Shown here: positions 1 to 49,698 of the stretch, one piece after another
Layout: each line of letters opens with the position of its first letter
How positions within the stretch are numbered: the stretch's first letter is position 1
From: Elusimicrobia bacterium GWA2_56_46
GTDB taxonomy: Bacteria; Elusimicrobiota; Elusimicrobia; Elusimicrobiales; UBA9959
Length of the DNA stretch: 64,000 bases
Direction: 5' to 3'
Assembly: GCA_001799575.1 (NCBI GenBank)
Contig: MGTT01000027.1
Coordinates: 11,997 to 75,996 of the forward strand
The notes under the pieces: generated by a model
Seen by the model: the letters and a program-made list of their open reading frames with translations, nothing else
Told to the model about the DNA's origin: nothing
The model's database searches: none
Made by a program: the position numbers and the translations under genes

Positions 1-72
1 TCGACACATTGGTCTATTCTTTTAGATCCCATACTCGGCACTATATCAAATATTTATTAAAGGCGGATAGAA

Positions 73-332
73 TCAAGCAACAAGGAATAAAGACGAGCGG
101 CCATCATGTGCGTAAGCTTAACGCGGGGTGGCGGGGTGAGGCCTTTTCGACCCGGCAGGCCGCCGACGGAACGCGAAAAGGCCTCACCCCGACAGGCCCC
201 CGCTTTACTATCCTGCGGTGCACAAGCCAAGGCCGACCAGCCCCGCACTTGGCAAAGCGAGCCGGACAAAGAGAGCCAGGCACATTTTTCTGCTGAAAAA
301 TAAGCCTGGCACCTTTGCCCTGGCGCCTTTGC
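73..332. repeat. Structured repeat, type A copy 1 (core hairpin 123-203 plus REP-like hairpin 275-310)
   Basis: Near-identical to 2765-3000 and 4085-4326. Long imperfect inverted repeat GCGGGG..CCCCGC, plus GCCAGGC-ACATTTTTCTGCTGAAAAATAA-GCCTGGC. Confidence 0.95.
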
Positions 333-374
333 CTTTTTTGTCGGGACTGGGGACCGTCCCCATTTCACGGAGGT

Positions 375-1073
375 CTATTCCGGTTGGCTCAGGGGGAGGT
401 CGTCGCCGGGTGAGAAGGGGCGGGCTGCCGGGGTTTTGGAAGTGTGCTGAATCGGCGGCTTGCCTTGGGGAGTGGTTTCCTCCGACAGGAAGACCTGCAT
501 CCGATCATTTTCCCAGCGTATAGCATAAGAGTAAATGCCATCGCCCCCGACGCTGTCCAGCACCTTTTGCGACCGAAGAGAACCATTCTCATCCCGTGTA
601 AAAAGATAGCCGTCCTCACCATCCTCACTCGCAACCAGCCAATACCATGAACCGGCGTGAACATGCGCCTGAACGAGATTCCCCCTCTCGGCTTTACCGA
701 AAGCCCAAATGCTGAATCCAAGCATTAGCGCGCACAGCGTCCACCGGAATGTCCATTTCGCAACTTGGGTAGCGTACAGAAACTTATTTCTTATCTCAAA
801 CCCCAGAACTACAGGAGCCCAGGAGAACAGCAGAATAAGACGAACCCATCTCCAGATTCCTTCAGTTGCGAACCAGGGATCTTTTATTGACAGCCCGGTA
901 ACGACAGCCGGAATAACGAATATTGCAAATAGGAGCCATGGCCCCTGAATGCTTTTACGCCTGAGCAATATCGGCAGCATAATGACTCCGGCCAGTGTGA
1001 GCAGAAAGTATCCCACACCGAATCCTATCAACGTGACACCCGCTATAGTCATACTTTGTAGTGTATATATCAA
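375..1073 (-). CDS. Hypothetical membrane protein
   Basis: 232 aa ORF with about four hydrophobic segments then a soluble C-terminus; AT-richer than core genes. Confidence 0.7.
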   Translation of the reverse strand: MIYTLQSMTIAGVTLIGFGVGYFLLTLAGVIMLPILLRRKSIQGPWLLFAIFVIPAVVTGLSIKDPWFATEGIWRWVRLILLFSWAPVVLGFEIRNKFLYATQVAKWTFRWTLCALMLGFSIWAFGKAERGNLVQAHVHAGSWYWLVASEDGEDGYLFTRDENGSLRSQKVLDSVGGDGIYSYAIRWENDRMQVFLSEETTPQGKPPIQHTSKTPAARPFSPGDDLPLSQPE

Positions 1074-1106
1074 GAATTATCAAGAATATTCAATGCATTT
1101 TCTTGC

Positions 1107-1649
1107 TCATCTATTTTTCAATTCTTTTTCAGAATGCATACACAGAATGCCGGTAGCAACACTACCCTTAACTCCTGCGTGCATATCTCCATCGTAAAAA
1201 CGCATGCCGGTAGCTTTTAAAGAGCCATCTTCTGTCGAAGACCAATACCATTTCTTACACGTGTCGGATTGCTGCCTTTTAGCGCATTCCGCATCATAGA
1301 TTTGTCGTAATTCTTGCGCCGTAGGCAACCGGCCGCCATGGCTCTGGCAATAGGCTGCGGCATTATTCCAATTACACCCGCCATTCATGCAATCGGGGAC
1401 GCTCGCCGCTGGGCTCTCGTCCGCAGGAACCGGAGGTGTTACTGATTGTAAAACTAAAGCCTGCGATGGTATGTCCTGCCCGTTATTGTTGGCGTCAGGA
1501 CTATTGGTTCCGGCTGCTGGTGTTCTGGCCGGATTGGCTTGCGCAACTGCAGCCTGCGTTTCATCAGACTGAGCAACTTCTTTCCCCTTACATGAAACGG
1601 CAAACATCAGCGCCGCCATCGGCAACGCGAAAAACGCTGTTTTCTTCAT
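1107..1649 (-). CDS. Lipoprotein with C-terminal DUF1566/Lcl-like (C-type-lectin-fold) domain
   Basis: Lipobox FAVSC, low-complexity linker, motif WNNAAAYCQSHGGRLPTAQEL...WYWSS; GGAG RBS upstream. Confidence 0.75.
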   Translation of the reverse strand: MKKTAFFALPMAALMFAVSCKGKEVAQSDETQAAVAQANPARTPAAGTNSPDANNNGQDIPSQALVLQSVTPPVPADESPAASVPDCMNGGCNWNNAAAYCQSHGGRLPTAQELRQIYDAECAKRQQSDTCKKWYWSSTEDGSLKATGMRFYDGDMHAGVKGSVATGILCMHSEKELKNR

Positions 1650-1691
1650 TGGTTTACTCCTATAGTGAGGATCTAGTCACTGCCCGGACAA

Positions 1692-2597
1692 CTATTTTGT
1701 CCTGAAGTTGTCCCAAAAATAACCGATATCGCGTCTTACAGAACTTTCGCAGGGATCTGAGCATGCCTGCACCAGATAAAAATCAAATTTTTCTCCAATT
1801 TCTTTTTTAGCCATCACTTTGAATTTGATCCCGTGCCTTAAAATAATTTCGTCTTCCATATTATCCATAAGAACGCCTCGTTCTCCAGGGCGATTATTGT
1901 AGATGGCGAATATGGCTTTCAGGGTGGTCGTATCAGTTATTGGTCTAAAAAAGGGTACTGAGTGGGTCGCAAAGTGTTCCGCCACCGGATAAGAAGTTGT
2001 CGTGGAAGTATAACCTTTCTCAACAAACTCTTCATTGATACCATAGCTTTTGTTTGCCCTGAATTTCAGAGTAAGGCCGCGAAATAAAATCAGATCTCCT
2101 GGAAGTTGCGGAACGCGCGCGAAAAGACGATCCAGGTTTTTGACCATGGCTTCAGCTTTTTCCGGGCCAATCGTCTTCCATTCATAAGACTCGGGATAAA
2201 AGCGCAGATAACTATTGATATCCCTGTAATAGCTGTCGGCGACTCCCTGGTCGGTGTAAGTTTCAAGATCCCTAATTTCTTCCGGACTCGCGCCGAAATA
2301 ACCTGGATCCGGGTACCCCAGCTGGCTGTAAAGTACTTTGTAGTTGTAGACCTTGATGCCAAAAGCGGCCGCGCGGGAAAGTCCGACATCATCGTAAACC
2401 GCAACGGATACCGGCTGGGACTCCCCCTTGTTCGGCATTTCAGACTGAGCTTTGAGGCTCAGGACGGTTTCGTGAAAGGCAAGCCCGTTGGAAGGAGCTG
2501 CAAAATAAATATCAGCGGCGGCTACCGCAGTATTGGAGAAAAGCGCCGCTAAAACGAGAGGCAAACCGGCTTTGCGCAACTTTTTAAGCATACTCAT
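1692..2597 (-). CDS. Secreted ADP-ribosyltransferase (VIP2/C2-like, R-S-E clade)
   Basis: Signal peptide; YT..Y..INSYLR, LFRGL (R), YTSTT (S), MEDEIIL (ExE). Confidence 0.8.
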   Translation of the reverse strand: MSMLKKLRKAGLPLVLAALFSNTAVAAADIYFAAPSNGLAFHETVLSLKAQSEMPNKGESQPVSVAVYDDVGLSRAAAFGIKVYNYKVLYSQLGYPDPGYFGASPEEIRDLETYTDQGVADSYYRDINSYLRFYPESYEWKTIGPEKAEAMVKNLDRLFARVPQLPGDLILFRGLTLKFRANKSYGINEEFVEKGYTSTTTSYPVAEHFATHSVPFFRPITDTTTLKAIFAIYNNRPGERGVLMDNMEDEIILRHGIKFKVMAKKEIGEKFDFYLVQACSDPCESSVRRDIGYFWDNFRTK

Positions 2598-2764
2598 TTT
2601 GCTGTTGAACCTCTAAATAGGGTACAGTTTCCGCCAATCTCCGTCATGAGCCAAAGGTCCTAATCACTGCTTGTCTTTTGGCTCAACTTCCAAGACGATG
2701 GTATTTATTGACCTACACGTAATTAACTAAGGGCGTCCCCATTTTCCATTTTTATTTTCTTAGG

Positions 2765-3000
2765 AAGCGCCGGGCGGATAAAGCCTAGCGGCCATTATGT
2801 GCGTAAGCTTAACGCGGGGTGGCGGGGCGAGGCTTTTTCGACCCGGCAGGCTGCCGACGGAACGCGAAAAGGCCTCGCCCCGACAGGCCCCCGCTTTACT
2901 ATCCTGCGGTGCTATAGCCCAAAGCCCATTAGCCCCATATTTTTGGGCAAAAGTGCCAGGCACATTTTTCTGCTGAAAAATAAGCCTGGCACTTTTGCCC
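2765..3000. repeat. Structured repeat, type A copy 2 (core 2814-2894; REP-like hairpin 2945-3000)
   Basis: Direct-orientation copy of 73-332 and 4085-4326; 17-bp perfect arms GGGCAAAAGTGCCAGGC/GCCTGGCACTTTTGCCC. Confidence 0.95.
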
Positions 3001-3017
3001 CTTGCCGCGGTGTTTCG

Positions 3018-3156
3018 TTACTTCCAGACTCCGGGGATGGTGGTTGCACAATGGCCGCAGAGGCCTTTGCTTTTTTGGTAATTTTTATCGTGTTGTTCAG
3101 GATCCTGAAGCCGCGGCGCGTCACCAGCGTTTTTCCGCATGAAGAACATAAAGTGT
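3018..3156 (-). pseudogene. Duplicated, frameshifted 3' fragment of amrS
   Basis: Aligns with 4339-4478, with several substitutions and a 1-bp deletion at the T-run; TRRGFRILNNTIKITKK and GLC.HCA..IPGVWK fall in different frames. Confidence 0.9.
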
Positions 3157-3172
3157 AGGACTGGGGTGTGTT

Positions 3173-3928
3173 TTATGGATTCAGTTTTATATCCGCCCAA
3201 TTGAGTAAACTCGTCACGACTGCTTTAATATTGCGTTGGGTTTTATCCGTAGTTAATGTGCCAGTTGCCGCTGCAATACCAAAACCATGATCGCCTCCAG
3301 CGATGGAAATCCAGATATCGCCGCTGTCGTCTTTCAGAAAATCAAAAAGAGCAGGAATAGAGCAGTTATCGCTATCCTTATCGCCCATGGTCATTAAAAT
3401 TGGACGAGATTCTTTTTTTAAGCTGGGATACATATTGTCGCAGTCAGAAACTGATAGGCACAATGGTGTCAGTAGCGCCAGCGCCTTGACTGAGGGATCT
3501 TTGGCAAATACTCGGTAAGCAATCACGCTTCCCATGGACTTGCCTACGAGCGCCAGTCGTGGGGTATCTACCTTTTGAAGCGATTTAGCGAAAGTAATGA
3601 CAGTTTGCATATCCTCAATTTCGTTTTTTCCGCCTTGCGAGGGAGAAGGGTGCTGGGGGTCAGATAAGCAATAGGCCCATTCGAATCGCACGGCGGTTAT
3701 GCCTAAGTCAGGGGCCAGGTTCCCTATAGTTTCAAATAGTTGCGACTTAGCGTTACAACTGCGTCCTGGAGCAATAACCATTACCGAGCCAGACGATGTG
3801 TCGGAATTATGCACGATAACCTGAACATCAGCGCCCCGAGGTGTTTTTAGCATTTGAATAACCTCAGCGCGAGAGTTCGATGCAAAACATAAAAAGCATG
3901 CTGCCATCAATAAAATGACCGGATTCAT
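3173..3928 (-). CDS. Secreted alpha/beta hydrolase
   Basis: Signal peptide from MNPVILL (RBS AGAGG); GKSMG nucleophile, GDKD acid, GGDHGF His; AT-richer. Confidence 0.85.
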   Translation of the reverse strand: MNPVILLMAACFLCFASNSRAEVIQMLKTPRGADVQVIVHNSDTSSGSVMVIAPGRSCNAKSQLFETIGNLAPDLGITAVRFEWAYCLSDPQHPSPSQGGKNEIEDMQTVITFAKSLQKVDTPRLALVGKSMGSVIAYRVFAKDPSVKALALLTPLCLSVSDCDNMYPSLKKESRPILMTMGDKDSDNCSIPALFDFLKDDSGDIWISIAGGDHGFGIAAATGTLTTDKTQRNIKAVVTSLLNWADIKLNP

Positions 3929-4084
3929 GAAACACCTCTTTTTAGCACTCATTGGTATATATTGGGTCAAGGTCAAAGCATACCGAACAGTCTTGTGATA
4001 ACTTTTTCAGATGATATCAAATTTATGCCCGCATAAAATGGATCGTGCTTTCAACTGGAGACCGGCGGGGTGATTTGCGACAGG

Positions 4085-4326
4085 TCAAGCGGCGGGGGAT
4101 AAAGACGAGCGGCCATTATGTGCGTAAGCTTAACGCGGGGTGGCGGGGCGAGGCTTTTTCGACCCGGCAGGCTGCCGACGGAACGCGAAAAGGCCTCGCC
4201 CCGACAGGCCCCCGCTTTACTATCCTGCGGTGCTATAGCCCAAAGCCAATTAGCCCCGGAGCAAAGGAGCCAGGCACATTTTTCTGCTGAAAAATAAGCC
4301 TGGCACCTTTGCCCTGGCGCCTTTGC
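4085..4326. repeat. Structured repeat, type A copy 3 (core 4135-4215; REP-like hairpin 4261-4312)
   Basis: Same sequence family, immediately downstream of the amrS stop. Confidence 0.95.
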
Positions 4327-4338
4327 ACCGGTGTTTCG

Positions 4339-5397
4339 TTACTTCCAGACGCCGGGGATGGGGGCTGCACAATGGGCGCAGAGGCCTGTGCCTTTTTTTG
4401 TAATTTTTATGGTGTTGTTCAGGATCCTGAAGCCGCGGCGCGTCACCAGCGTTTTGCCGCATGAAGAACATAAAGTGTCTTCGTATCCCTGCCCCGGGAT
4501 ATTGCCGGTGTAGACGTATTTCAGACCTTTCTTCAATCCGATGTCGCGCGCTTTCAGCAGCGTTTCGGGAGGAGTGGCCCCCCGGTCGGTCATATTATAG
4601 GTCGGATAAAAAGCCGTGACATGCCAGGGAATGTCCCTGGAAATCCCCGAAATGAACCCCGCCACACTCTCAAGTTCTTCTTTACCGTCGTTAAAACCCG
4701 GAATAAGCAAAGTCACTATCTCCAGCCAGAACCCCTTGGCATGGACCATCTCTATCGCCCTGAGAACGTTTGAAAGCTTCCCACCCGCCACCTTCGCGTA
4801 ATTTTCCCCGTTAAAAGTCTTGAGATCCGCCTTGTAGAACTGAACATGGGGCTTTATATAATCCAGGACTTCCGACGAAGCATAGCCGTTGGAAACATAA
4901 GCGGCCCTGATACCATATTTGCGCGCCTCCTTGAAAACGGCCAGGCTCCACTCCGCGGTTATGAGCGGCTCATTGTACGTAGACACTATTATCGCCGCCC
5001 CCGCATCGCGCGCGGAAGCGGCAAGTTTCTCCGGAGTTGCCGGCGCAAGTTCCCCGGCATGGCAGGCGGGATCCCTGAGAACCTGCGACGTCAGATAGTT
5101 CTGGCAGAAAGAACATTTAAAATTACACCCCAGCATTCCGAAGGAAAACGTTAACGCGCCCGGCAGAACGTGGAATAAGGGCTTTTTTTCCACCGGATCC
5201 AGGCCATAGCCGGAAATATAACCCCAGGGAACCCTCAGTATGCCGCCCTCATTCAACCGAACCTTGCAGACGCCCGAGCCGTCCGGCGGTATCAGACATT
5301 TATGGGCGCAGGCTAGACAGCGCACGCGGCCGTCCGTCATTTTTTCGCAAAGTTCCGCCGGCGCGGAATATTTGCGAAGTTGTTCCATAAGGGTCAT
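4339..5397 (-). CDS. amrS: AmmeMemoRadiSam system radical SAM enzyme
   Basis: N-terminal CxxCxxxC...G.C.VR, DPVEKKPLFH, CNFKCSFC, TYNEP, C-terminal CxxC..CxxC. Confidence 0.9.
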   Translation of the reverse strand: MTLMEQLRKYSAPAELCEKMTDGRVRCLACAHKCLIPPDGSGVCKVRLNEGGILRVPWGYISGYGLDPVEKKPLFHVLPGALTFSFGMLGCNFKCSFCQNYLTSQVLRDPACHAGELAPATPEKLAASARDAGAAIIVSTYNEPLITAEWSLAVFKEARKYGIRAAYVSNGYASSEVLDYIKPHVQFYKADLKTFNGENYAKVAGGKLSNVLRAIEMVHAKGFWLEIVTLLIPGFNDGKEELESVAGFISGISRDIPWHVTAFYPTYNMTDRGATPPETLLKARDIGLKKGLKYVYTGNIPGQGYEDTLCSSCGKTLVTRRGFRILNNTIKITKKGTGLCAHCAAPIPGVWK

Positions 5398-5400
5398 AAA

Positions 5401-6303
5401 TCAAGTTGTTTCCGTTTTCCCCCACGTCGGGGCTTTAACATTAAGGGCTTTATGCAGCACGGAGATCCTGAGAGAGCCGCTATCGCTGAAATCTTCGCCG
5501 TCGAGATGATAGACGGAGCCCGGCGGAAAGCTTATCTCCATCAGGCCGGAAACGGCCGTCGTAACCAGGTCTGTGTGCCTGGGAAGCCGGCCGCCGAAAA
5601 GGTCGGGGACGGCAAGAAGCGTTTTTAAAATGCCGGCTTTTTTTATCACCACGAGATCCAGCAGTCCGTCGTCTATATAAGCGCCGGGCGCTACTTTCGC
5701 CCCCCCGCCGTACTGCTGGCCGTTAAGCACCGCGGTAACCATGGGAGAAAACTCAAGGCGGCGTCCGTTTATATTAACAACGGTGCGCAGCGGAGAATAT
5801 CTGAAAAACGCCAAAGCCGAGTGATAGACATACGGGAACAGTCCCCGCCGTCCGCCCAGCCGGGTATTGAAGATCCTGGCCACCTCCGCGTCCAGACCCA
5901 CGCCCGCCGCGCAGAAAAACGGCCTGCCGTTGGCGAGGCCCACGTCTATTTTCCGCGGTTCCCATTCCAGAAGGCCTTTGAGGGCGGCTTCCTGTCCGAG
6001 CGGGATGTAAAGGTTGCGGGCGAGACCGTTCCCCGAACCCAGCGGGAGTATGCCAAGCGCCGCTGACTTGCCGATAAGCGGTTCGGCCGCCTCCCGGATG
6101 GTGCCGTCGCCTCCGGCGGCGACTATATTGGTGAACCCCGCCAGCAGAGCCCTGCGCGAAAGTTCCAGACCGTGGCCTTTGCGTTCGGTCAACCCGATCT
6201 CATAATGGATCCCCCGGCCCCGGAAAAAAGCGTGGATGCGCCCGGACAGGCGCGCGCCGGAACCCTTGCCGGAAGTGGGATTGATAATGAAGAAATAAGA
6301 CAT
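5401..6303 (-). CDS. Diacylglycerol kinase family (YegS/DAGK) lipid kinase
   Basis: INPTSG, GGDGT, PLGSGNGLAR, GGG, DDGLLD, DGE motifs. Confidence 0.9.
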   Translation of the reverse strand: MSYFFIINPTSGKGSGARLSGRIHAFFRGRGIHYEIGLTERKGHGLELSRRALLAGFTNIVAAGGDGTIREAAEPLIGKSAALGILPLGSGNGLARNLYIPLGQEAALKGLLEWEPRKIDVGLANGRPFFCAAGVGLDAEVARIFNTRLGGRRGLFPYVYHSALAFFRYSPLRTVVNINGRRLEFSPMVTAVLNGQQYGGGAKVAPGAYIDDGLLDLVVIKKAGILKTLLAVPDLFGGRLPRHTDLVTTAVSGLMEISFPPGSVYHLDGEDFSDSGSLRISVLHKALNVKAPTWGKTETT

Positions 6304-16125: not shown

Positions 16126-16199
16126 TGCCCCCTAGAGGGATCGAACCTCTAACCTACTGCTCCGAAGGCAGTCGCTCTATCCAGTTGAGCTAAGGGGGC
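16126..16199 (-). tRNA. tRNA-Arg (anticodon TCG), CCA not encoded
   Basis: GCCCCCT/AGGGGGC acceptor, TAGCTCAACTGGATAGAGC D-arm, ACTGC-CTTCGGA-GCAGT anticodon arm, GGTTCGATCC T-arm. Confidence 0.95.
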
Positions 16200-32717: not shown

Positions 32718-34265
32718 ATGGAAACCGCGCCCGGAATACTGGTGATCAGGATGTCGTCCCTGGGCGACATCATATTGACGGCCCCCGTCCTGAGGAACCT
32801 CAGGCGCCGGTGGCCGGACGCCCGCATTACAATGCTGGTCAAGCCCCAGTTCGCCGCGGCCGCGGCCAAAAATCCTTTCGTTTCGGACATTCTCCCTTTC
32901 CGCGGCCTGATATCGGCCGTCGGTGATATAAAGAAAGGCCGTTACGACATCCTCGTGGATCTGCACGCGAACCTGCGCAGCCGTCTGCTTGCTTTTTTTT
33001 CCGGCATCGCGCTGAAAACCCGCTACCGCAAGGATTCCCTGGCCCGCCGCCTTTTCGTGAATTTCCGCGTGCCCAGCCCGGCCCTTGAAAAGCACACGCT
33101 GGAACGGTATCTGGAAGTCCTGGACGCCATAAACGTCCCGGCCGTACACCGGGAACCGCTGATCGGGGACTGGGTCATGGAAGCCGGGCCGCCGGCGCTT
33201 AAAAAAGGCCCGAAGCGCGTGGCGCTGCTGCAGACCGCCTTCCTGGGAGATTCGGTTTTGACCCTGCCGCTGCTGGAAAAAATAAAAAAAGTCCTGCCGG
33301 ATTCCGAGATCACCGTGCTGACCCGGCCGGAAACGGCGCAGGTGTTCGCCTCCTCCGGATTGGCGGCGGAAGTCCTCGCCGATGACAAAAAGGTGCCAGG
33401 CACCTTTTTTAAAAATTTTTTTCGTCTCCTGGCGGAACTCAAAAAACGCCGGTTCGACATCATCATAGTTCCCCACCGGTCGCTGAGAAGCGCGCTGCTG
33501 GCGCGCCTGGCCGGCATTCCCATGCGCATAGGCTTCGACTCAAGCGCCGGCAGTTTCCTGTTCACCCACAAAGTCCCTTTCTCCTGGCTCCTTCACGACT
33601 TGGAGCGGAACCTGACGCTGGTTCTGCCGCTGGAAGGCGATACCGCCGCTTCTTTCCCCGCCCTGCGGGAAGCGGCCGGGCCGTTAAAGTTTCCCGGTTT
33701 GGACGGGAGCATCTTTATCGGGGCCAATCCCGGCTCGGTCTGGCCGACAAAGCGCTGGCCGAAAGATTACTGGGCGCGCCTGATAACCGAACTGTCGCGC
33801 GCCTACGGCACGAAAGTCCTGCTGGTGGGCGGCAGGAACGAAGTAGAATGGAACGGGGAAATTGAAAAAGCCGCGGCGCCGGGCTCCATTCTTAACCTGA
33901 CCGGAAAAACCGGCATGGAAGATCTTATGGGCCTCATACGGAGGCTCAAGCTCTTCATCACCAACGATTCCGGCCCCATGCACATCGCCGTCGCTTTCGG
34001 CGTGCCGGTGGCCGCGATCTTCGGCCCCACCACGCGCGAGCTGGGTTTTTTCCCCTACGGCGCCGGCAATATAGTCCTGGAAGAACCCCTCGCCTGCCGG
34101 CCCTGCGCCCTGCACGGTTCGAAAAAATGCCCGCGCGGACATTTTTTATGTATGAGACTGGTGACCCCGGATAAAGTCCTGGCGGCGGCGAAAGACATTT
34201 TAGATAAAGAGAACATAAGCGGTAAAGCGCAAAGGGATTCCGGGATTACAAGGAAAATATGCTGA
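32718..34265 (+). CDS. GT9 heptosyltransferase (WaaF-like) with an extra N-terminal GT9 half-domain
   Basis: RMSSLGDIIL...DLH, then QTAFLGDSVL...PGSVWPTKRWP...NDSGPMHIA..FGPT. Confidence 0.88.
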   Translation: METAPGILVIRMSSLGDIILTAPVLRNLRRRWPDARITMLVKPQFAAAAAKNPFVSDILPFRGLISAVGDIKKGRYDILVDLHANLRSRLLAFFSGIALKTRYRKDSLARRLFVNFRVPSPALEKHTLERYLEVLDAINVPAVHREPLIGDWVMEAGPPALKKGPKRVALLQTAFLGDSVLTLPLLEKIKKVLPDSEITVLTRPETAQVFASSGLAAEVLADDKKVPGTFFKNFFRLLAELKKRRFDIIIVPHRSLRSALLARLAGIPMRIGFDSSAGSFLFTHKVPFSWLLHDLERNLTLVLPLEGDTAASFPALREAAGPLKFPGLDGSIFIGANPGSVWPTKRWPKDYWARLITELSRAYGTKVLLVGGRNEVEWNGEIEKAAAPGSILNLTGKTGMEDLMGLIRRLKLFITNDSGPMHIAVAFGVPVAAIFGPTTRELGFFPYGAGNIVLEEPLACRPCALHGSKKCPRGHFLCMRLVTPDKVLAAAKDILDKENISGKAQRDSGITRKIC

Positions 34266-49505: not shown

Positions 49506-49698
49506 GGGAATAAATCCGAGCGCGAAGCGGGCGTCGGGCCCAGCGCTATGCGCGCCTGGCCCGACGAGGTGTATGCCTCCCGGAGGGCGCCCGCTATGCG
49601 GGCGGAAAACTTCAACTGAAGTTTTCAGGTTAGCCCAGCATTTTCGGCAAAGAGAGCCAGGCGCATTTTTCTGCTGAAAAATAAGCCTGGCACCTTTG
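49506..49698. repeat. Type A-related element with a different internal hairpin
   Basis: Shares left motif GGAATAAAnnCGAGCG and right module TAGCCC..CAAAGAGAGCCAGGC.CATTTTTCTGCTGAAAAATAAGCCTGGCACCTTTG with type A. Confidence 0.85.

Follow-up and report, generated by a model that had tools for sequence, protein, structure and literature searches.

How do strain-specific genes accumulate at one chromosomal site when no integrase is encoded beside it? The question is raised by a 64,000-nucleotide stretch of DNA (hereafter 'the window') from Elusimicrobia bacterium GWA2_56_46 (GCA_001799575.1), which corresponds to positions 11,997-75,996 of contig MGTT01000027.1 (C27). Downstream of amrS, a gene for an AmmeMemoRadiSam radical SAM enzyme, co-oriented cargo genes alternate with copies of a hairpin-rich element of ~250 nt, an arrangement that the original prediction, made from the sequence of the window, described as an integron-like gene-accretion site. 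The gene-accretion reading is supported by comparative data at amrS and at four other loci. With regard to mechanism, we favor with moderate confidence a serial stacking of the cargo by recombination and displacement, for which amrS and the element serve as anchors, at a hotspot that is marked by repeats.

The genome that carries the window (G000; 2.66 Mb, 30 contigs, 98.8% complete) was assembled from groundwater metagenomes. Percentiles of GC content at third codon positions (GC3), as well as the enclosure and orientation counts given below, are based on 2231 genes called with our own crude codon-bias caller, and p-values are indicative only because neighboring genes and kin genomes are not independent. 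In window coordinates, the element copies (E1 to E3, each composed of modules A and B), the cargo genes and the anchor are as follows.

82 to 332, plus strand: element copy E1, with module A at ~83-241, module B at ~265-319, and a 12-nt spacer common with E3.
375 to 1073, minus strand: multi-pass membrane protein of 232 aa, no Pfam family; GC3 percentile 8.6.
1107 to 1649, minus strand: putative lipoprotein of 180 aa, Lcl_C (PF07603; DUF1566-like); GC3 percentile 1.8.
1692 to 2597, minus strand: ADP-ribosyltransferase-like (ART) protein of 301 aa, PF03496, predicted to be secreted; GC3 percentile 2.8.
2773 to 3012, plus strand: element copy E2, with module A at ~2776-2934 and module B at ~2945-2999.
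3018 to 3156, minus strand: remnant of the amrS 3′ end (stump), the last ~46 codons plus stop; 137 of 150 positions identical to live amrS.
3173 to 3976, minus strand: alpha/beta hydrolase of 267 aa, PF20408, predicted to be secreted; GC3 percentile 1.2.
4094 to 4338, plus strand: element copy E3, with module A at 4094-4255, module B at 4261-4314, and a tail reaching the amrS stop codon.
4339 to 5397, minus strand: amrS, the conserved anchor; TIGR04337, 283 bits (cut-off 220).

Read along the minus strand, the order is amrS, E3, the hydrolase gene, the amrS stump, E2, the genes for the ART protein, the Lcl_C lipoprotein and the membrane protein, and finally E1, just as had been proposed, and the TIGR04337 match confirms the identity of amrS. 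The cargo genes are all co-oriented and, as also proposed, AT-richer than the anchor, as evident by GC3 percentiles of 1.2 to 8.6 versus 18 for amrS. Their products are predicted to be exported, judging from a reading of the N-termini. Residues R173, S198, E248 and E250 of the ART protein are invariant across 19 homologues. Homologues of the ART gene bear the name Elusimicrobia in their source records. One aspect of the predicted layout had to be reversed: cargo had been paired with the downstream element, whereas each block instead goes with the element that borders it on the side of amrS.

Two dispersed repeat families of this Elusimicrobia lineage, modules A and B, make up the ~250-nt element. 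Its three copies in the array (82-332, 2773-3012 and 4094-4326; ~235-250 nt) occupy the predicted positions in direct orientation, but the description 'near-identical' holds for E2 and E3 only. Relative to E2, the 164-nt element core is 84% identical in E1 and 98% in E3 (100% being E2 itself), and over the whole element E3 is ~90% identical to E2 and ~85% to E1. A 38-nt core of the second hairpin is repeated exactly three times in the region and is never found in 100 shuffles. E3 is predicted to fold with -114 kcal/mol on either strand (z-scores -5.2 and -4.5).

The array was expected to continue left of window position 1, and this proved correct. A GH13 amylase gene (C27:10223-11956) is followed by a gene for a predicted secreted C11 peptidase (C27:8775-10061) and by a fourth, inverted copy of module A (C27:8547-8707), 3.3 kb left of the window. 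This inverted copy begins 10 nt past the stop codon of a gene for a 156-aa membrane protein, which itself lies downstream of era. Because the flanking genes are convergent in three relatives (G002, G006 and G010), with spacers of 124, 50 and 0 nt, respectively, we place the island at C27:8538-16337 (7.8 kb), of which the window holds the right-hand 4.4 kb. Inverted A copies abutting the stop codons of the 156-aa membrane-protein gene and of amrS form its two ends, and its cargo blocks contain one, three and two genes. Of the six island genes, five have GC3 values under the 10th percentile and, by composition, would be foreign; the exception is the GH13 gene, at the 31st. The hydrolase gene was found in none of the 20 relatives searched. 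The GH13 gene has orthologues at unrelated loci in G003 (82%; C58:1906-3636) and G005 (77%; C460:235-1962) and thus appears to be a 'floating' gene inside the genus. No A or B copy lies near these two orthologues.

That the 3′ flank of amrS is a gene-accretion site is borne out by its varying contents in the six genomes of the genus with usable contigs (G000-G004 and G006). Four of them carry different fillings, and two are empty. The empty site of G002 consists of a 124-nt spacer with a degenerate, hairpin-deleted A copy, and that of G006 of a 50-nt spacer; in G010, from another genus, era itself is convergent with amrS and the spacer is 0 nt. The convergent junction of G002 and G006 is the ancestral state. 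G001 has a hairpin-deleted A copy 18 nt past the amrS stop codon and then a different gene for a predicted secreted protein (GC3 0.415), inside which the contig terminates. The filling of G004 comprises two other genes without an A copy, and in G003 unrelated genes, all in one orientation, fill ~9 kb. In all relatives compared, the gene order upstream (lipoprotein, FecR, orf239, DAGK, amrS) is kept. An orthologous A copy whose 163-end points towards the amrS stop codon is common to G000, G001 and G002. Since it is present in three species, one of them without cargo (G002) and one with other cargo (G001), this A copy was probably in place before the cargo arrived.

A trace of how cargo was added is provided by the amrS 3′ end, which is duplicated. 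The last ~140 nt of amrS and the adjoining spacer occur at 2999-3156 and at 4320-4478, with 88% and then 97% identity. Together with the element they constitute a 385-nt direct repeat that flanks the hydrolase gene and whose identity forms a mosaic (98%, 88%, 97%). The stump differs from live amrS at 13 of 150 sites and has lost one nucleotide from an A-run; a CxxC motif is retained in the shifted frame, and several of the differences match the state found in relatives and not that of live amrS. Truncation is sharp, at 3156/3157, 17 nt past the hydrolase stop codon. Therefore, in one event or more, DNA was joined within amrS and not at a hairpin. Moreover, the stump lies beside E2, and E2 must therefore formerly have abutted an amrS 3′ end.

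The relationships among the element copies point in the same direction. E1, E2 and E3 form one clade among 28 near-full-length A copies, with module A identities of 98% between E2 and E3 and of 91-92% between E1 and the other two, against a family median of 74%. A peculiar spacer that follows module B is common to E1 and E3, although E1 retains only 12 nt of it. As mutual closest relatives, two of which share a spacer, the three copies are therefore serial derivatives of one amrS-adjacent element, and not separate arrivals. The outermost copy within the window, E1, is probably the oldest, and its junction lies 13 nt from the expected position of an amrS stop codon.

Building on the observed anatomy, variability among congeners, repeat biology and duplication, we infer the following recombination route and order of events. 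An A copy would have resided beside the amrS stop codon before cargo arrived. Segments of the form 'amrS - element - other cargo' would then have been imported repeatedly from related strains, with homologous recombination in amrS or in the element on one side and an illegitimate joint on the other, or else with entry by a Campbell-type single crossover of a circle. Each import would displace the previous element and its cargo outward, which would yield three direct, closely related element copies and one amrS stump. For the stump, the simplest route would be import of 'amrS - E - hydrolase' from a related strain, with pairing in amrS and an illegitimate far joint; the structure would be the same after one crossover with a circle that bears this segment. 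The same logic could cover the older E1 junction. Stacking by homology-facilitated illegitimate recombination has a precedent, in that the text available from PMC5361080 proposes it for the effector-immunity arrays of the Vibrio cholerae type VI secretion system (T6SS) and notes it for 'orphaned' 3′ regions of Rhs genes.

Several observations weigh against serial stacking by this route. Homology-facilitated illegitimate recombination is reported to be rare (same text of PMC5361080). ComEC and DprA are present, but the same matches occur in 10 and 11 of 14 control genomes, and thus are not diagnostic of competence. We found no donor that carries either 'amrS - element - hydrolase' or 'amrS - element - ART'. 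A single ART protein used as query for related loci gave no match, and an alignment used as query gave 43 loci; amrS or module A occurs at none of these 43, which include one C11-like gene, one distant Lcl_C-like gene and one weak B-like match (E 3e-4). The ART, lectin-like and membrane protein genes are therefore not a cassette that travels elsewhere. The contigs of four metagenome runs described below reveal no cassette polymorphism. The uniformly inward orientation of inverted A pairs (13:0, see below) and the unit ends that abut stop codons resemble transposition of defined units. Finally, gene conversion between local copies could equally yield the 385-nt mosaic and the E1-E3 clade. Our confidence in serial stacking is held at a moderate level because no donor was found and because gene conversion could mimic part of the pattern.

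A history written in repeats could also be an artefact of assembly, in which strain variants were collapsed or chimerically joined across the repeats of a metagenome-assembled genome. The 30-contig assembly does derive from groundwater metagenomes. Junctions were checked in Logan contigs of four runs, likewise groundwater metagenomes, that contain the window sequence; because these are contigs and not reads, rare variants may escape detection. Such contigs break within repeats, and no single independent contig covers all copies. However, every unique junction (e.g. 3104-4137, 303-2816, 2259-2838, 2963-3133) is crossed by contigs with 0 differences in one run or more, and for several this is the case in three runs of different samples. 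The junction between the stump and the hydrolase flank is among those bridged, by 3104-4137 (run X1), 3104-3647 (X5) and 3104-3720 (X7). The best-covering run may be the source sample, such that the runs are not fully independent, and uncovered parts in X7 and X9 carry no evidential weight. An artefact is thus highly improbable. The circular or empty-site joints that the original prediction suggested seeking did not appear: no deletion, circle or other alternative joint was seen in the contigs of these four runs.

Is the element specific to this array? BLAST and iterated nhmmer searches place module A (~160 nt) at 69 loci, which are nearly all intergenic and of which 28 are near full length, and A and B occur together at ~11 loci. 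At the center of module A is a 25-bp hairpin. When 28 copies from four genomes are aligned, compensatory changes are seen in 13 of 33 predicted pairs and almost no pairs are broken; a separate analysis agrees. These pairing patterns show that the hairpin is under structural selection. By our own tally from the pair table, G-U pairs far outnumber A-C pairs in the main hairpin (19 versus 2), which points to the strand running towards amrS as the structured one. Of the order's 121 genomes, a covariance model recovers module A in 15; 14 of these are among the 59 others of the family, and none is among the 59 of the small-genome family. Module A is not a described RNA family, since no Rfam family matches window positions 1-6000 (E up to 1) or seven distant module-A loci (E up to 0.01). 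Readings of module A as an omega-RNA, a bridge RNA or a retron were dropped because no match to TnpB (PF07282), IS110 (PF02371) or reverse transcriptase (PF00078) families exists genome-wide, although this is not proof.

Several further sequence features accompany the family. In other genera of the family (L163-L168, ~1501-1715), the apical stem of module A relatives is ~55-60 nt longer; flank motifs (GGGGUG..., CAGGNCCCCG, AUCCUGCGG, CCCAAAG) are conserved, with one to five matches per genome in varied intergenic contexts. A conserved AT-rich block (GGGCGGGGTCAATATATTGTATTTT...) precedes many A copies, for example at C15:96728, C18:13078 and C23:17112. The tail of one subfamily ends in TTATCGGAGGATTTGG, which looks like a predicted promoter plus ribosome-binding site.

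The relationship between these dispersed repeats and foreign genes depends on how proximity is defined. Elsewhere in the genome, genes enclosed between neighboring repeat loci (A or B) show a strong enrichment for low GC3 (16 of 35, versus 202 of 2190 others), whereas simple adjacency to a repeat gives only a weak enrichment (20 of 126 versus 199 of 2099; p = 0.03). The prediction would have been in trouble had relatives been identical at amrS, or had the element been scattered without any such enrichment; the element is indeed genome-wide, yet the genes that it encloses are enriched. Enclosed cargo includes an M23 peptidase, a methyltransferase, a Bro-N protein, a rhomboid protease, a CsgG-like protein and a block of Fic, S41-peptidase and extracytoplasmic function (ECF) sigma factor genes, and no transposase. 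A second low-GC3 island of ~10 kb (C10:50940-60584) carries genes for an LRV-repeat protein, an S41 peptidase, a Fic protein, an ECF sigma factor and others, and is punctuated by three module-A copies, direct then inverted.

Five repeat-bracketed loci besides amrS were compared among congeners, and content varies at four of them (C20, C16, C28 and C30); the flanks of the fifth, C12, lie on different contigs in relatives. At C20, between uvrC and MGMT, an A dimer is common to G000, G002 and G003, and an M23 gene lies inside it in G000 only, while G001 has a gene for a different, 509-aa protein predicted to be secreted. Because the dimer is shared while its contents differ or are missing, cargo enters an existing dimer and does not arrive with it. 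C16 is empty in G005 and G006, holds 360-690 nt with A remnants in G001, G002 and G003, and holds 3.1 kb of other genes, including one for another Lcl_C-like protein, in G004. At C28, G001, G003 and G004 lack the unit composed of A, a methyltransferase gene and A, and have gaps of 49-102 nt in its place; in G000 the unit starts directly after the stop codon of the left gene, and the native terminator is retained on the right. C30 is empty in G003 and G006 and has an A copy in G002. No cargo of these four loci has a DNA-level match at a second locus in the congeners. The sole within-genome match of cargo is a 74%-identical Bro-N paralogue on C21, without a repeat copy nearby.

These data bear on the notion that the repeats are mere bystanders, which colonized permissive intergenic space after foreign genes had arrived and had no role in acquisition. 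The family is genome-wide (69 A and 28 B loci), most copies lie beside ordinary genes with only the weak adjacency enrichment (p = 0.03), and module B sits within 40 nt of a gene 3′ end in 16 of 25 cases, like REPs (repetitive extragenic palindromes) and terminator-like hairpins. Nevertheless, the A copy at amrS is probably older than the cargo there, E1 to E3 are local derivatives and not independent arrivals, the C20 dimer is common to species with different contents, and the 13:0 orientation bias speaks against random colonization. We therefore hold a bystander role to be unlikely, and a little more so than the two transposition-like schemes considered next. Because the repeat family brackets variable foreign single genes elsewhere in the genome, the repeats are better understood as portable homology, perhaps as fragile palindromic landing pads, than as integrase sites.

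The orientation bias just mentioned emerges from the 22 neighboring A pairs that lie within 6 kb of each other: in 13 the position-1 ends face one another, in none do they face outward, and nine are direct. Relative to neighboring genes, the orientation of module A by 3′ end shows only a weak trend (33 of 52, p = 0.07). Cargo-free A dimers occur, with gaps of 11-227 nt, and the outer ends of units carry a conserved GGCGTTACATTA-like tail that abuts stop codons. Such a pattern might be expected of a non-autonomous transposon with long terminal inverted repeats, wherein an inverted A pair forms the ends of a MITE-like unit (MITE, miniature inverted-repeat transposable element) with passengers, a transposase acts in trans, and the amrS array consists of nested or adjacent insertions whose inner left ends were lost. 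The low-GC3 enrichment of enclosed genes, the C28 unit that begins right at a stop codon in G000 and is missing from three relatives, and the amrS island bounded by inverted A copies abutting both stop codons fit this scheme as well. On the other hand, no target-site duplication is discernible at the 13 inward pairs or in the filled-versus-empty comparison at C28, and the tail motif is carried by no transposase: of its 14 intergenic copies (31 genome-wide), none lies within 2.5 kb of a DDE, rve or Y1 gene in this genome, which is 98.8% complete and may thus lack the sequence of such an element. Dispersed copies are old (median identity 74%), the C20 dimer persists in three genomes while its cargo differs or is missing, and neither the array's direct copies, three in number, nor the amrS stump is explained. 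Transposition of this kind thus strikes us as doubtful. A DDE transposase gene near one A copy (C10:31.6-32.9 kb) was taken as a coincidence because no inverted repeats tie the two together.

Module B (~55 nt, at 28 loci) suggests a different kind of enzyme. It is formed by a 21-nt REP palindrome, AAAAGGTGCCWGGCACCTTTT, arranged as a doublet; its 26-nt arms are 92% complementary and, by our own reading of the alignments, share 20 of 23 and 17 of 21 positions with the REP. In E3, module B lies 25 nt past the amrS stop codon. The REP occurs in 22 copies genome-wide, 15 of which are intergenic by our gene calls. Three copies flank a Y1 transposase-like gene (C6:83119-83748, 209 aa) that resembles genes for REP-associated tyrosine transposases (RAYTs), and a B profile matches these flanking REPs in nhmmer searches (E 0.005-0.03). 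The encoded protein scores 44 bits against PF01797 (cut-off 23), and its best NCBIfam match, NF047646, reaches 64 bits, below the cut-off of 80. One REP copy lies in the window, at 33390-33406 (AAGGTGCCAGGCACCTT core). A further copy of the 38-nt hairpin core, with one mismatch, at 49656-49693 is a solo module-B copy that resembles a REPIN (a REP doublet forming a hairpin), ~30 nt from a gene 3′ end by our gene calls.

The original prediction invoked an HUH/RAYT-type enzyme, and this proposal stands in part: a RAYT-like Y1 gene exists and its REP is the building block of module B, but the gene is flanked by the short REP only and not by the full element. In such a scheme, a hairpin-specific cassette system would operate in trans, with a Y1/HUH enzyme (the RAYT-like protein or another) that would bind the hairpins of module A or B in single-stranded form and insert or excise 'element + cargo' units at sites near stop codons. 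In its favor, both B arms consist of the sequence that flanks the RAYT-like gene three times, compensatory changes affect 13 of 33 pairs while the excess of G-U over A-C pairs suggests strand-specific use, the conserved GGCGTTACATTA-like tail at unit ends abuts stop codons, and the C28 and C30 units are present or absent whole. However, the stump joint lies 158 nt inside amrS and not at a hairpin, the RAYT-like protein falls under the NCBIfam cut-off, no cargo of the four variable loci has a DNA match at a second locus in congeners, and RAYTs are not known to move cargo (PMC3337134, PMC3116915). We judge a cassette enzyme acting in trans to be improbable. A second Y1-like gene (C21:56242-57183; 313 aa, with a weak Y1_Tnp domain and a C-terminal helix-turn-helix, in a low-GC3 region) was rejected as a partner of A and B, as it has its own 28-nt inverted repeats (96% complementary, 1082 nt apart) and no A or B nearby.

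Even so, the inward pairs, the tail motif that abuts stop codons, and the RAYT-like gene with matching REPs suggest that the repeats are more than passive homology. Long palindromes are known break points, and dimer centers could act as capture sites through palindrome breakage. An integrase-free platform for gene capture by hairpins can be imagined, in which A pairs would serve as palindromic landing pads sited exactly at stop codons and would repeatedly admit single foreign genes by way of a trans-acting single-strand enzyme, with the RAYT-like protein as candidate, or by cleavage at palindrome centers. We consider such a platform a speculative proposition with a low probability. If true, this lineage would keep dozens of small cassette slots, of which the amrS array is the largest, and would possess a functional parallel to integrons made from REP and MITE parts.

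Integrons themselves comprise an IntI gene, an attI site, and attC sites formed by imperfect palindromes of 57-141 nt with R″/L″-L′/R′ cores, and each cassette carries a single promoterless open reading frame in common orientation. Co-oriented cargo separated by hairpin repeats, with newer cargo nearest to a fixed point, is what the amrS array shares with chromosomal integrons. The two differ in that the array lacks IntI, attI and attC features, its repeats are genome-wide, its blocks hold several genes, and one junction lies inside a gene. No integrase, transposase or reverse transcriptase had been noted in the window, and none of the families tested (PF00589, PF01797, PF01609, PF00665, PF02371, PF07282, PF00078) matches on contig C27; in the absence of a PF00589 match there, no IntI gene resides beside the array, and the three PF00589 matches in the genome are on C4, C9 and C28. 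By inspection, the elements are without a GTTRRRY core, their junction motifs, GTTACAT and GTTACTT, do not fit that consensus, and their 233-250 nt contain two separate hairpins. The integron-like description with non-attC hairpins therefore survives for layout but not for mechanism, as no IntI lies nearby and blocks contain one to three genes. The analogy is limited to layout.

The array instead relates to three known kinds of system: the minimal mobile element (MME), the MITE/REPIN and the displacement array. MMEs of Neisseria, as defined in the available text of PMC3082526 (citing Saunders & Snyder 2002 and Snyder et al. 2007), resemble the amrS site in that two conserved genes enclose whole-gene cassettes that differ between strains or species, with no mobility gene belonging to the element, and their incorporation is ascribed there to homologous recombination. 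The amrS slot differs because it is punctuated by a dispersed structured repeat, its cargo is stacked and not swapped, and a flanking-gene stump was left, which means that the exchange was not cleanly homologous on both sides. Pairing in amrS would have occurred on one side, and the stump argues for it.

Displacement arrays, such as those of V. cholerae T6SS and of Rhs and contact-dependent inhibition (CDI) systems, are closer with respect to stacking. In the account available from PMC5361080, a conserved upstream anchor pairs, a new module is placed next to the anchor while older ones are pushed downstream, and remnants of the anchor 3′ end are left behind; the corresponding remnant here is the one stump at 3018-3156. 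At the site studied here, by contrast, amrS as an anchor is functionally unconnected with the cargo (an unrelated hydrolase, ART, lectin, peptidase and amylase), there are no toxin-immunity pairs, and a non-coding repeat travels with each module.

For the repeats, the closest likenesses are to REPINs and MITE composites. A short intergenic REP palindrome, a doublet that folds into a long hairpin (module B), and a Y1-like gene flanked by REPs are all shared with REPIN/RAYT systems as portrayed in the accessible portions of PMC3337134, PMC3116915 and bioRxiv 10.1101/2022.05.22.493013. The differences are that module A is separate, larger and without demonstrable REP similarity, that the RAYT-like protein is below the curated cut-off, and that REPINs are not known to bracket or carry genes. 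With regard to passengers, no target-site duplication was recognizable here and no cognate transposase was found, unlike what is expected for MITE composites; the hairpin-rich arms measure ~160-250 nt, resistance genes are not among the passengers, and arms persist at orthologous sites while cargo changes. Integron mobilization units and mobile insertion cassettes have the same kind of layout as MITE composites with passengers. Those named TIME-COMPs are alike in that inverted non-coding repeats flank one or a few passenger genes with no transposase inside (available text of PMC13367494).

The result is of broader interest for several reasons. The integrase-free gain of genes is well documented only in a few cultivated, naturally transformable pathogens, and the amrS locus exhibits the same outcome, stacked strain-specific genes for secreted proteins, in an uncultivated groundwater lineage of Elusimicrobia. 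What it adds to the known cases is a family of structured repeats that lies at the borders of many variable slots. If these repeats take part in capture, whether through homology, as fragile palindromes or as enzyme sites, they would link REP/MITE biology to pangenome growth and would offer a simple signature in the sequence by which slots for accessory genes could be found in metagenome-assembled genomes. If they take no part, the locus would still be a clean example from nature of how serial displacement can be anchored in a housekeeping gene.

Two minor observations may be added. A scan for expression signals found five promoter-like sites where 4.5 were expected, which is uninformative, and 13 terminator-like sites where 6.1 were expected, some of them in module B. 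In addition, a tRNA-Arg (TCG) gene lies at 16126-16199 on the minus strand and is unrelated to the island.

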